DNA of 64,000 bases, taken from NCBI GenBank assembly GCA_016721605.1, contig JADKHS010000005.1:49431-113430 (forward strand), given 5' to 3'. Position numbers: made by a program. This document shows positions 54,601-60,600 of this stretch, in pieces. Positions within the stretch are counted from its first letter, which is position 1; every line of letters begins with the position of its first letter. This DNA is from Nitrosomonadales bacterium. GTDB lineage: Bacteria > Pseudomonadota > Gammaproteobacteria > Burkholderiales > Gallionellaceae.

Positions 54601-57600
54601 AGAACATAGTAAAAATCATAAATTCAGCTTTCTTTATCTTATTTGGGAATAAGCACAATCTGTAAAGATGCAATACACTTACAACCTGATTAGGTCAGGA
54701 GTTGAGATATGTGCGAACTGCTCGGCATGAACTGCAATGTCCCCACTGATATTTGTTTTTCCTTCACTGGCTTCCAGAAACGGGGTGGAGAAACGGGTAT
54801 ACACGCTGATGGCTGGGGCATCGCTTTTTTCGAGGGCAAGGGCGTGCGGCTATTTTTGGATCCAAAACCTTCAGCCCAATCGCCTATCGCAGAACTGGTG
54901 CGTAACTATCCTATCCAATCCCTTAACGTCATAGCGCATATTCGTAAGGCGACACAAGGCTTGGTGTCGTTGGAGAATACCCATCCGTTTGTGCGCGAGT
55001 TGTGGGGTCAGTACTGGGTTTTTGCGCACAACGGTAATCTGCCGCAATTTCAGCCTGAGTTATATGGTGGCTTTGTTCCTGTGGGAAATACTGACAGTGA
55101 ACGTATTTTTTGCTGGTTGCTGCAAAGCCTGAGAATTCGGTTTAATGACACACCGCCAACGCGTGATGTTCTGTTTGCCGCATTGCATGAGCTAACCGAT
55201 CAGCTTGCTGGCATGGGCATCTTTAACTATCTATTGTCTAATGGCGAATGCCTTTTCGCGCATTGCTCTACCGAATTAAACTACCTTATCCGTCATAGTC
55301 CATTTAATGTGGCGCATCTCAAAGATGAGGATATGACAGTCGATTTCAGTCGCGTGACTACGCCTAATGATCGCGTGGCTATCATCGCCACCGTGCCGCT
55401 GACTGACAACGAGCCTTGGCACGCCATGATGCCGGGTACATTGTGGATGTTCCATGGGGGTAATGCTGTCGTACAGCTTGCTACGACCCCTAGTCCGATA
55501 AAATCGCTGGATGGATGTTGGTGAGCCTTTGATTAATAAAAGGATTAATCAAAAGATTAATCGAGAAAATTTTCTGGTGCGTGGGCAAGCATTCCGAATG
55601 CCTGCGCGACGGCGTGATGAGTAATTTTTCCATTCACGATATTGAGTCCTTTACGCAACGCAGCGTTATCTTTTAGTGCCTGTTTCCAGCCTTTATTTGC
55701 CAATTGCAGCACATAAGGCAAAGTCGCGTTGGTTAGCGCCAGCGTTGAGGTGCGTGGCACTGCGCCGGGCATGTTCGCAACGGCATAATGAATTACACCT
55801 TCGACCACATAAATCGGGTTCTCGTGCGTGGTGGGATGGGTTGTTTCAATGCAGCCGCCTTGATCCACTGCAACATCCACGATCACCGAGCCTTGGCGCA
55901 TGGTCTTGAGATCATCGTAGCGTATCAGCTTGGGCGCAACGGCTCCGGTGACTAACACCCCGCCGATGACAAGATCGGCGGTGGCAATCTGTTCCAGCAG
56001 ATTGTGTCGATTGGAAAAAACAAACTGTACGTTAGCGGGCAAAACATCGCTAAGATAGCGCAGCCGCTCCAGTGAAATATCGAGGATGGTGACACTCGCG
56101 CCCAGACCTGCCGCCATTTTGGCGGCATTCATGCCCACTACGCCGCCGCCGAGGATGACAACATGCGCAGGTGGCACACCCGGTACACCACCAAGCAGAA
56201 CGCCCCGTCCACCATAAAGTTTTTCGAGATATTTGGCCCCTTCGTGCACGGCCATGCGTCCGGCGACTTCAGACATGGGTGTCAGCAGTGGCAATTCGCG
56301 TGTAGGCAATTCAATCGTTTCGTAAGCGATGCAAGTTGCCCCAGAATCCAGATGTGCTTGGGTTAGTTTTTCATTTGCGGAAAAATGAAAATAGGTAAAC
56401 AGTGTTTGACCAGGCTTGATGCGCCGCCATTCTGGCTCAATTGGCTCTTTAACTTTAACGATCAGATCGGCATCCGCCCATATTGTGTCGGCGTCAGGGA
56501 CGATACATGCCCCTACCGCATGATACTGCTCGTCACTGAACCCACTGCCTAATCCTGCACCTGCCTCGACCAGCACAGAATGCCCGGCCGCAATAAGTGA
56601 TTCTGCGCCGGATGGAACCAGTGCGACACGGCTTTCGTTTGCTTTGATTTCTTTTGGTATGCCGATTTTCATGCGATTGCCTCATCCCAACTTAATCTTG
56701 AGCAAACTCGATAATTTTTTGAGTTTGTTGATCGGGTATGACCACCACATCATTCGCGGCTATTTTCTGAGTAATTTCCTGAAACATTTCGAAGCGCCTA
56801 CCATCATTTTCGGCTGGCCCCTGCACCGGGAACAGAATTCGATCCGGCAATAATTTCAAAGCCCGCAATTTTTCTACTTTGCCCAACCAGGCCCAGCCAT
56901 GATCGTAGATTTGCGCGGGGTCTTCGTGCGCCAGATGCAGGGGCTTAATCGCTTTCACTGCGCGCCCGTTTTCTCGATGCACAAAGGGTAGGCGCGTATG
57001 ATAGGTGGCAGCATCCCCCAATGTCTCGGGGCGATATTGCTTGTCCAGCTTTGCGTCCGTCAAAATCCTACGCACATTTTTTTCCAGCAACTGTTCTTGA
57101 TAAGCCTTGGTCGCAAAATTGCGTTCCACATAATGACCGAACAATTCATCGAACTTCTGTACCGGATCGTCGGCCAGCACCACGCGCACCGCATCAAAGC
57201 GCATCATGGCCTCGCGCGGGCGCGTCAGCTCGGCAAAGAGATGACGAGCCAAATCCGTATTTATCCTGTTTTCTTGTTTTGGATCAAGCCAGTTACGGAT
57301 GCGTTTTAGTTCTTGCTTGAAATCGTTGGCGGCGCGGCGATAGATGCCTGCATCTAATTCCTCGAAAAATGACGTGATGCGGCGGATATGCCGTAATAAT
57401 CTGAACTCGAATAACCCGGCATCCGGGCACAACATCACGATGCCTACATTGGCAAACTCGCCGGTTTCCAAATAAGGTAGGAAGCGGACGATAGCGTACT
57501 GACAGGCGTATTTATTTATCACGCTATCCTCCAAAAATATCATCTGTAAATCGGTTGAGAGTTTCACTTGCTGCATCACGGTTGAAATTGGCTGGGACTC

Positions 57601-60600
57601 CATCATCTTCCCACCACCACTCTGGAGGGACATTATCGCAAGCGAAATCGAATTCGACAATCGCATCCGCCAAACGATTGCGGTAGACATCGCGCTCCAC
57701 CAAATCACCTAAGATATTCAAAAGGCTGTCATTGAATACATGAATCTGCGCAAATTGTAGCGAATCAAAGTGCGGGTCGAATGCCTGATTGTGGTCAATA
57801 ACGGCCAACCTCGAATTCTTTTGATCCCACAGCAAATTTGGATTGCCGCCTTTCTCGCTCAAAGTACGATCCGCGTTATGCACCCACCAGTCGAACATCA
57901 CCACATCCTTGCGAACTTGCTCATTCACTTGAGTAATATGTGAAAAGGAAAACTCCTGCACATGTGGCAATGCCTTGGAGCCGAATACCAGCCCCGTACC
58001 CAGTTCGTTTGCATCTCCCCGGCTGCACCACCGGATCAATTCGGGCGGAATTTCCACGATTTCAAAATCAGGGACCGGCAGGCCAAAGGCGCGCGCCAGC
58101 CGTCCACCCACGTACTCTGCAATCAAGCTTTGCCTGCCAGCCCCCCGGCCTTTGACAAAGTAAGCCTGCCCATCTTCGCAGCGGCAATAGAACGGCCTGG
58201 TGACGCCCTGAATCGAGCGGTCGAGAATTTCAACAATCTGGACAGTCATGCATCCCCCGTCAAATCAGGTGCCGCTTCCGGCATTCGCCCCATAAATATC
58301 AAGCGCTGGCAGGCTGTTCACAATCTTTATCGTCTCCAGGCTCACTGTTGCCACGCGCATGAACAGTTCCAGCGGATAACGCGGGTTGCCCATTGTTTCC
58401 ACTGCCCAGTCGTTGGCGTCGTTGACAATGCCGCTGTCCTTGTCGGTCTTCACGCATTGGCGCTCCACCACCCAATCCAGTGCTGGTTTGCCGTTCACGA
58501 TGTAGTCGTAGGCTTCCAGCGGGATGCCGGTCAGGGTGATCTTGTCGTTGTAATACAGCGTGGTGAGGTCTTTGTCCTTGTCCTTCTTGCCGTACTTCAT
58601 TTTCTCCACACGATAGTCCGCCGCGTAGGGGCAGGTTCATTGCCACCATTGTCCGTATCGCTACCATCTTGAGCGGGTAAGGCTCTACCGTTTCGTAGTT
58701 CAGGTGTAGCTCGGCCAGTTTGCGCCCAGCCTGTGAGAAAGCCCAGAAGTCGGTAGTAGTTTTCACGCGAGGGATGCGCGGCAATTCCTTGCTCAGATTG
58801 TCAGCGTAGCGTTCGCGGTAGTCCGGCGAATGCAGCAGGCCATAGACGTAATAGAACACATCTTCCTTGCTGATCTGCTCGCCGGAATAGGCGGATTGGA
58901 AATGCGCCAGCCCTTCGTCGGTGAGTGCATCGCGGCGTTGCCTTCCTGCTTTCTTTTCTGGTGTAGCAAACAGGTCTGTATTTTGCGACTCTGAATTTTC
59001 GGAGTCAGATTCTGATTCGTCGTATAGGTACAGCGGGAAACATTGCGAATCGCCGTTGCTGTGCAGGTCAAGCATCAGCAATCAGGGCGATCTGACTATG
59101 TCCTGAGTGTGGCGTTCACCATGATTACACGATTCTGTGTAGCGGCATCTGGAAAGATACGCGGCATCAAAATACATATTCATTCAGCTTGCGATTGAAG
59201 TATTGCCATTGTTTGGTAAATGGGCGATACAAGCTTGTGGTCAGGTCGCCGATTTCAAAACGAGCACCTGTCTCTTTGACCAGTTCCTGCTTCAAGGCGC
59301 GTGTCCAACTGATGCGAGTGGAGTCGGCATCGATAAATTCGTCCAACTTGGCTTCACGAGTTTTTTTATCCAATCCGGCATGTCCCTCGGCAAATCGCGT
59401 AACCTCGTTGTTATAGAAGTCGGTCATACGCGCCATGTTTGCGGTCACTGCTAATTTTGATGCGTTGTAGCACCATGCATCGCGGTTGGTTGCCACACCC
59501 AGAGAAAATTATCAAACAGCTTGAGTGTCGCCTTTCTTGTCGCCCAGAACGATGTACTACCAAACCGATCATCTCGCTGCTTAAGCCAATCGCCGCTGAT
59601 CTGGCGTGATGGTCCGCCAGACACCAGCCTCAGTGATTCCGGCGATGCTGGCAAACTCAATGAGCTTACCTAGCCTCTTCACGGCTAAGGTAATCTCCAA
59701 TATCGTGAAGGTAAATCTGGCCGTGGTGCGTAGCATCGGGATTTTTTACCAGCAAGGAAATGGCAATCGGGGCGCGGCTGCCCATACCAAACACGTTGTC
59801 CTTTTCCTTACGGCGTAGTTCGCCAGCTGTGCGGGCATTGCCGCGCAAGTGGAACACATAGATATTGGAGAACTCATCAGCCAGTGATTTACGTAAACCG
59901 TCAGCGGTGTTGGCTTCCAGAAATCCGGCATTGGTGACAAATCCTATGACACCACTTTTTCCGATTCGATCAGATGCCCAGCGAATGGCGCGGATATAGC
60001 TGTCATACATATTTCTGACATTGCCTGCAACCGAGCGTTCTACGTAAGTGTTACGAATGCAGCTATCCAGATGCGGGTATGACATTATGGTTTGCCTGTT
60101 TGCGGTTTCTTGCCCTACAGAATACGGCGGATTCCCATAATCACCCGAATATCCAGCCTTTCGCTTCGCCGTGCACTATTTTTCCAGCAGCGCATCTACC
60201 AAATCTTCCTTCTCGTAGAGCTGGAAAGTGTCGGTCAGGCAGATGCCTTCAAACGGCTGGTAGTTACCGCCGACGATGCTATGGTACACCGCCTCAATGT
60301 TGATCGCCGCGATGTAATAAGCCAGCAGCACGATCTCATTAGCGTGGATTTCGTTCTGGTACTTGTAGGGCAATTGTTCCGGTGTAATCAGACCGCTTTG
60401 CAGCAAGCGGGTGATGAAGGTGCCAGTGCCAGTGAATGGATCAATGATGTGAACGCCCTTGCTGCCCAATGTCTGACCGAACTCGCTTTTCAGAATGTCA
60501 TTGACGCTGTGGATGATGAAGTCCACCACCTCAACGGGCGTGTACACAATGCCCAGTCGCTCAGTCATCTTGGGGAAGGCATTGCGGAAGAATTTGTCGT

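Follow-up and report, generated by a model that had tools for sequence, protein, structure and literature searches.

A HipA_2 kinase/DUF3037 gene pair behind a decayed restriction-modification gene in Candidatus Nitrotoga is probably a diverged HipAD anti-phage module

Identification of a HipAD-like gene pair

The stretch of DNA analyzed here (the window, 64,000 nucleotides [nt], positions 49,431 to 113,430 of contig JADKHS010000005.1 in assembly GCA_016721605.1) belongs to a Candidatus Nitrotoga genome of the family Gallionellaceae and carries, behind a broken restriction-modification (RM) gene, two adjacent genes encoding a HipA-like kinase and a DUF3037 protein. This pair is very probably a diverged member of HipAD (DS-6, PADLOC PDC-M66), a group of two-gene anti-phage toxin-antitoxin systems.

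Profile searches place both proteins in the families that make up HipAD. The kinase belongs to HipA_2 (Pfam PF20613, E = 1.6e-86), with a match over residues 5 to 239 that covers 236 of the 240 profile positions, and its partner carries DUF3037 at the N terminus (Pfam PF11236, E = 5.7e-25, residues 9 to 132). In PADLOC, which the original prediction for this locus had proposed as a check, the adjacent genes matched PDC-M66A (E = 2.7e-15, covering kinase residues 2 to 158) and PDC-M66B (E = 5.1e-24), and in PHROG they matched phrog_3162 (E = 1.4e-55) and phrog_5137 (E = 3.3e-58), respectively; an NCBIfam profile search gave no match for either protein. In a tblastn search of phage genomes, homologs were found in Escherichia phage PhiR5_1 (PV340545.1), where they are annotated as “HipA toxin” (249 amino acids [aa]) and “HipD antitoxin” (275 aa) and are placed just after cI, with the same kinase-first order and Pfam content as in the window. 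By BLASTP, the window kinase aligns with the PhiR5_1 toxin over essentially its full length (35% identity, E = 3e-45) and the partner aligns with the antitoxin over 271 aa (25% identity, E = 6e-33). The PhiR5_1 toxin itself matches Pfam HipA_2 (E = 9.7e-77), and the PhiR5_1 pair matches PDC-M66A and PDC-M66B at a level (6e-15 and 3.8e-16) comparable to that of the window proteins.

Homologs of the pair have been studied experimentally. The Retron-Sda1 operon carries a HipA-like/DUF3037 pair identified as PDC-M66, in which deletion of the kinase abolished defense against phage Bas51 and deletion of the DUF3037 gene was toxic, and its authors concluded that the pair is a stand-alone defense with the kinase as the toxin (PMC12548924). 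The DefensePredictor paper (DeWeirdt et al. 2026, PMC13092281) validated DS-6 in Escherichia coli, also under the name HipAD with a citation of Brenes and Laub 2025; there, a catalytic mutant of DS-6A loses defense, AlphaFold3 predicts a DS-6A-DS-6B complex, and DS-6B is reported to combine DUF3037 with DUF1829. The PDC candidates originally came to light as cassettes lying within operons of Type I RM, BREX, or DISARM (Payne et al. 2024, 10.1101/2024.01.29.577857). By analogy with these homologs, the Nitrotoga pair may likewise provide defense, be toxic upon loss of the partner, and depend on the catalytic residues of the kinase. The original prediction had proposed a kinase toxin with a partner antitoxin acting against phages, and this class of mechanism agrees with the literature on the gene pair (PMC12548924, PMC13092281). 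Its statement that no mechanism was established for such a pair is out of date, however, as the pair matches a characterized system through both PDC-M66 and the HipA/HipD homologs of PhiR5_1.

Predicted structures of the two proteins

In a 13-sequence alignment of the kinase family, residues K33, E45, D120, N125, D127, R128, N138, and D152 were invariant, and K33, E45, D127, N138, and D152 were invariant across 13 to 15 family members. The motifs VK, NADR, and IDH, originally picked out from the sequence alone as catalytic, correspond to the family-invariant K33, N125/D127/R128, and D152. AlphaFold2 modeled the kinase with confidence (predicted local distance difference test [pLDDT] score of 89.3, predicted template modeling [pTM] score of 0.89), although the last 10 residues form a low-confidence tail, and the best fold matches of the model are PI4KII-alpha, Helicobacter pylori CtkA, actin-fragmin kinase, CotH, and, weakly, Shewanella HipA. 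These matches of the model indicate an atypical protein kinase of HipA/PI3-4K-like fold. No solved structure close to the kinase came up in a sequence search of the PDB, in which actin-fragmin kinase (E = 0.004) and HipA chains (E = 0.015 to 0.5) scored best.

The AlphaFold2 model of the DUF3037 protein (pLDDT of 84.5) consists of two alpha/beta domains. Its matches to PDB folds are all weak (best E = 1.5e-3, template modeling scores of 0.2 to 0.34) and fall mostly among PD-(D/E)xK proteins, including BstEII, Can2, Card1, arenavirus endonucleases, XPF/MUS81, and AF1548, which hints at a restriction endonuclease-like domain. Residues 133 to 276 matched no Pfam family at E ≤ 1. A DUF3037 protein of a different family architecture is encoded in genome G304 (L053:9342-10607); it is 421 aa long, with DUF3037 at residues 152 to 275 behind an N-terminal extension of ~150 aa, and its gene has no adjacent HipA_2 kinase gene and is preceded by a 415-aa open reading frame (ORF) without a Pfam match.

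Organization of the locus and the altered kinase C terminus

The features of the locus and the genes found upstream of related pairs are listed in Table 1. As originally described, the stop codon of the RM gene, a 15-nt spacer, the kinase gene, a 1-nt gap, and the DUF3037 gene follow one another in the same orientation. The last RM fragment ends in TGA at 58267-58265, and the spacer (tttgacgggggatgc) leads to the kinase ATG at 58249. The kinase stop codon (TAG, 57526-57524) is separated by the single base 57523 from the GTG start at 57522 of the DUF3037 gene, which has a ribosome-binding site (GGAGGA) 8 nt before its start and ends in TAA at 56694-56692.

Table 1. Features of the window and genes found directly upstream of related pairs
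Feature	Position in window or locus	Strand	Basis
HipA_2-family Ser/Thr kinase, 241 aa (putative HipA-like toxin of a HipAD-type module)	57524..58249	minus	Pfam, PADLOC, PHROG, BLASTP, model
DUF3037 protein, 276 aa, GTG start (putative HipD-like antitoxin/neutralizer)	56692..57522	minus	Pfam, PADLOC, PHROG, BLASTP
T-run with 1-nt deletion relative to three sister genomes	57530..57537	minus	Pairwise DNA alignments, translations of relatives
Type ISP RM pseudogene	58265..63194	minus	Pfam and PADLOC on fragments, comparison with ortholog
Intergenic region upstream of RM gene, presumed operon promoter site	63195..63399	minus	Retained in all deletion derivatives
Whole 6.7-kb island (RM gene, kinase gene, DUF3037 gene)	56685..63399	minus	Two Nitrotoga genomes without the locus
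Upstream of pair: Type III mod and res	L018, L021		
Upstream of pair: Type I hsdR-M-S	L019, L026		
Upstream of pair: different Type I, hsdM-S-R	L020		
Upstream of pair: truncated Type IIG enzyme	L022		
Upstream of pair (broken copy): type IV-A CRISPR DinG helicase	L025		

Both small genes had been taken to be intact, which holds for the catalytic motifs of the kinase but not strictly for its C terminus. In pairwise DNA alignments with the sister Nitrotoga genomes HW29, LAW, and SPKER, the window lacks 1 nt that all three have in a T-run at ~57533. In these relatives, the kinase stop and the DUF3037 start overlap as GTGA, the ancestral arrangement, and the 1-nt gap in the window is a consequence of the deletion. 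The kinase accordingly ends in ..DDIFGG in the window and in ..DDIFWRIA in the sister genomes (..DDTFWRIA in L014), and the family-conserved C-terminal FW is missing from the window protein.

The deletion may be a real change or a homopolymer sequencing error. In the same assembly, cysA and cysW are also broken, each by a 1-nt deletion beside an A-run, and therefore some indels of this assembly may be sequencing errors. These two genes of a sulfate ABC transporter (window 51838-53724) are split at ~52672 and ~53143 relative to the three sister genomes, reflecting either homopolymer assembly errors or a sulfate transporter operon that has become a pseudogene here.

Selection and erosion of the pair

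Among Nitrotoga genomes, the ratio of nonsynonymous to synonymous substitution rates (dN/dS) is 0.08 to 0.20 for the DUF3037 gene, close to that of the neighboring alanine dehydrogenase gene ald (0.09 to 0.15), and the DUF3037 gene is thus under purifying selection; the kinase gene has higher values, at 0.23 to 0.61. Damaged copies are found among the relatives. In Nitrotoga SPKER (L016:9273-10004), the kinase gene has a premature stop; at L017:7090-8002, the kinase gene has been deleted down to its last ~27 codons next to an intact, orphan DUF3037 gene; and at L025:9362-10831, a type IV-A DinG gene precedes a kinase gene that has lost its 5' end, and the partner gene contains a stop. In chromosomal toxin-antitoxin pairs, the usual fate is that the toxin erodes first while the antitoxin is retained. 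The module is eroding, and the window copy is at an early stage of erosion. Together, these loci form a natural decay series in which the RM gene is lost first, the kinase next, and the antitoxin last.

This erosion raises the question of whether the window pair is an inactive remnant, in which the C-terminal frameshift has crippled the kinase and selection acts only on a harmless antitoxin. The loss of the conserved FW tail, the premature stop in the SPKER kinase, the difference in dN/dS between the kinase and its partner, and the erosion of the whole island are all consistent with such a remnant. On the other hand, 236 of the ~243 kinase codons, including those for all catalytic residues, are intact, the altered end lies within the low-confidence tail of the model, and the indel is possibly a homopolymer error like those in cysA and cysW. 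We therefore consider it unlikely that the pair is already inactive or on the way to becoming so.

Several of these observations nevertheless weigh against the assignment of the window pair to HipAD as a working defense module. The kinase and its partner are only 35% and 25% identical, respectively, to the proteins of the validated E. coli system, and DUF1829, reported in DS-6B, had no Pfam match at E ≤ 1 in the partner or in PhiR5_1 HipD. The window kinase lacks the family-conserved FW owing to the 1-nt deletion and may be weakened, the kinase gene has the higher dN/dS among Nitrotoga, and function in Nitrotoga is carried over by analogy from homologs.

The RM gene and the 6.7-kb island

As judged from its sequence, the gene upstream of the pair is a pseudogene of the Type ISP family (LlaGI/LlaBIII type), whose members are single polypeptides of ~1600 aa. 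Pfam searches on its fragments recovered Mrr_cat_2, ResIII/helicase, ISP_coupler, N6_Mtase, and Type_ISP_C, in this order, corresponding to an Mrr-like nuclease, a superfamily 2 helicase, a coupler, an N6-methyltransferase, and a Type_ISP_C target recognition domain, and the fragments match PADLOC REase_MTase_IIG (E = 2.4e-296 and 4e-156). Compared with an intact 1603-aa ortholog from another family (L013:7412-12223 in genome G029), frameshifts or stops interrupt the reading frame at 10 or more points within 4.9 kb, which bears out the fragmentation noted originally.

We considered whether this fragmentation could be purely an assembly artifact and rejected that explanation. The RM gene carries ~2 indels per kb, about eight times the density in the neighboring 12 kb (~0.25 per kb), and the sister genomes HW29, LAW, and SPKER carry the island at the same site with three different internal RM deletions (63078 to 58355, 62471 to 58621, and 63133 to 58405 in window coordinates). 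The decay of the RM gene is therefore real. The pair is kept in all three sister genomes at 94 to 97% protein identity.

In two other Nitrotoga genomes without the locus, G005 (L071) and G014 (L074), the position equivalent to 63400 in the window is joined to that at ~56684 with 240 to 414 nt between them. These positions mark the flanks of the island, a cation-efflux gene (63400) and ald (56684), and therefore the RM gene and the pair constitute one inserted 6.7-kb island. A repeat search around the island detected neither flanking repeats, direct or inverted, nor att-like sites or a target duplication. The start codon of ald lies 19 nt past the stop codon of the DUF3037 gene (window 56672-56692) on the same strand, and no terminator is present between them; therefore, read-through from the island into ald is possible.

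The pair is probably transcribed from the promoter of the RM gene. All three RM deletions in the sister genomes keep the upstream intergenic region and at least the first 20 RM codons, an element of the form TTGCAC-N15-TATACT is located in this intergenic region (~63288-63262), and the stretch from the RM gene to the kinase gene yielded no consensus sigma-70 promoter. The number of sites returned by a scan for consensus promoters and terminators did not exceed that expected from shuffled sequence.

Across Nitrotoga species, synonymous divergence (dS) of the pair is 0.04 to 0.17, compared with 0.27 to 0.41 for the adjacent housekeeping gene ald (window 55557-58249 against L014 to L016). Because dS of the pair is well below that of ald, recent horizontal exchange of the island between species is suggested.

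Such mobility, together with the retention of the pair while the neighboring RM gene was deleted three separate times, would also fit a purely selfish role, in which the island is stabilized by postsegregational killing, gives no phage protection, and persists as it is hard to delete. The orphan antitoxins and toxin-first erosion described above point the same way. Homologs of the pair give measurable phage defense in E. coli, however, and addiction and defense are not mutually exclusive; we accordingly give addiction as the sole role a small share of the probability and retain HipAD-type defense as the preferred reading.

Beyond Nitrotoga, the slot taken by the kinase pair is occupied differently next to the intact Type ISP gene of genome G029, where a 451-aa ORF (L013:12216-13571) overlaps the RM stop by 8 nt. 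Only a C-terminal SH3_3 domain (E = 5e-6) was recognized in its product, which had no PADLOC match; this ORF may be an uncharacterized accessory gene embedded with the RM enzyme.

Genomic context across relatives

Other pairs in Gallionellaceae and Sulfuricella, 62 to 79% identical to that of the window, likewise lie directly behind and co-oriented with immune genes (Table 1). In 6 of 6 distinct resolvable contexts (Type ISP, Type III, two Type I, Type IIG, and type IV-A DinG), the pair is 3' of the immune genes, with gaps of -1 to 77 nt. The DinG case reflects a rearrangement, because its kinase gene is 5'-truncated and its DUF3037 gene is stopped. A strict association with Type ISP enzymes was rejected, given the intact orthologous gene in G029 without a pair and the other partners of Type I, III, and IIG and DinG.

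Shared DNA homology among these loci starts 4 to 26 nt before the kinase start and ends 0 to 85 nt past the stop of the partner, often just beyond a terminator-like hairpin. Because homology begins so close to the kinase start, the shared unit appears to be a promoter-less cassette comprising a ribosome-binding site, the two genes, and often a terminator. At L017, L020, and L022, both chromosomal flanks are common and the upstream content differs, and L018, L021, and L019 share the gene downstream of the pair. Across these loci, the RM content upstream of the pair varies among none, Type I, Type IIG, and Type III. This pattern points to a chromosomal hotspot with variable RM content and a constant pair.

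In a wider sample of Pseudomonadota, DUF3037 was present in 24 of 401 genomes. Here, the pair followed cI-like repressor genes directly at L056 and L058 and an MmeI-type RM gene at L052, and elsewhere it lay beside housekeeping genes; strong PADLOC matches among 108 neighboring proteins were to Type IIG RM, Type IV restriction endonuclease (REase), AbiEi/AbiEii, and retron RT/NDT. The link between the pair and immune operons is real and recurrent and supports a defense context.

The same association might be taken as evidence that the pair guards the upstream RM or immune operon and fires on its inhibition or shutoff, as PrrC guards EcoprrI, which was the second possibility raised by the original prediction. 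The position of the pair directly 3' of and co-oriented with immune genes in all six Gallionellaceae and Sulfuricella contexts, the MmeI-type case in the wider sample, and the lack of a promoter of its own would all be expected of such a guard. However, a specific RM-guard mechanism finds no support in this association: the immune partners are of unrelated mechanistic classes, which argues against recognition by specific protein-protein contact. The DinG context is a product of rearrangement. Moreover, the pair persists in four Nitrotoga genomes in which the RM gene is broken or deleted (deleted in three of them), the intact Type ISP ortholog in G029 is not accompanied by a pair, and the pair has its own antitoxin homolog. 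The validated relatives in E. coli and Retron-Sda1 act alone, adjoining cI or a retron reverse transcriptase (RT) without a nearby RM system. The pair therefore appears not to need the RM enzyme, and a guard of that enzyme is highly improbable.

A more general form of dependence on the host operon can also be imagined. In this scenario, the cassette would be a promoter-less 3' add-on of Gallionellaceae immune operons, those of Type I, III, IIG, and ISP RM systems and possibly also of type IV CRISPR, with the balance of toxin and antitoxin set by transcription of the host operon. It could then be a generic tripwire, fired when a phage shuts off or silences that operon, and could in addition provide a conserved recombination anchor for swaps of RM systems at one chromosomal hotspot. 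We regard this as a long shot.

Proposed mode of action

By analogy with HipA-type kinases, the 241-aa HipA_2 kinase would be the toxin and would stop growth by phosphorylating an essential host factor. The DUF3037 protein (HipD), translated from the same mRNA directly behind the kinase, would bind and neutralize it until infection upsets the balance between the two, at which point the infected cell would arrest and the phage would fail (abortive infection). Four elements of this account are inferences: what the kinase phosphorylates, what sets it off, that the RM promoter drives transcription of the pair, and that the module is active in this host. The pair and the Type ISP RM gene would have reached the Candidatus Nitrotoga genome together, as a single 6.7-kb island; the RM gene has since decayed and the pair has persisted, perhaps because it still protects the cell or because losing a toxin-antitoxin pair is difficult.

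The main value of this assignment is a correct annotation: a pair that seemed new from its sequence is a probable diverged HipAD/DS-6/PDC-M66, now found in the nitrite oxidizer Candidatus Nitrotoga and its family. The arrangement as an apparently promoter-less 3' add-on behind unrelated immune operons of Gallionellaceae and the decay series are new but modest, and neither changes what the system is. Both could nonetheless inform work on HipAD, and a promoter-less cassette at a partly shared hotspot offers a testable handle on the expression and movement of such toxin-antitoxin defenses.

Comparison with known systems

The closest likeness is to HipAD of PhiR5_1, which has the same Pfam families in the same order, proteins of similar size (249 and 275 aa there, compared with 241 and 276 aa here), conserved catalytic residues in the kinase, and tight coupling of stop and start codons. 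The PhiR5_1 genes follow cI in a lambdoid prophage, whereas the window pair comes after an RM gene on an island in the chromosome of a nitrite-oxidizing betaproteobacterium, apparently lacks its own promoter, and has a kinase C terminus altered by the 1-nt deletion. With respect to PDC-M66, both models are matched and the RM-linked context fits, although Type ISP is not among the host systems of that study. The Retron-Sda1 module, likened here by its description, is of the same two-gene type, in which the DUF3037 protein neutralizes a toxic kinase, and is also attached to another immune system, in that case the RT and noncoding RNA of a type III-A1 retron rather than an RM enzyme.

The classical HipBA (E. 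coli K-12) and HipBST systems likewise consist of a growth-arresting kinase toxin of HipA/PI3-4K-like fold held by a protein antitoxin. Classical HipBA, however, is defined by an upstream HipB with a helix-turn-helix (HTH) domain and a HipA of ~440 aa with Couple_hipA and HipA_C domains, and its HipA belongs to a Pfam family other than HipA_2. In contrast, the window encodes only a 241-aa HipA_2 protein, with the toxin gene first, and lacks both a HipB-type HTH antitoxin and the N-terminal domain of HipA. Finally, PrrC/EcoprrI resembles the window in having a toxin gene in one operon with a restriction system, but PrrC is an anticodon nuclease that the RM complex itself keeps latent, whereas the putative toxin of the window is paired with its own antitoxin and has outlived the RM gene.

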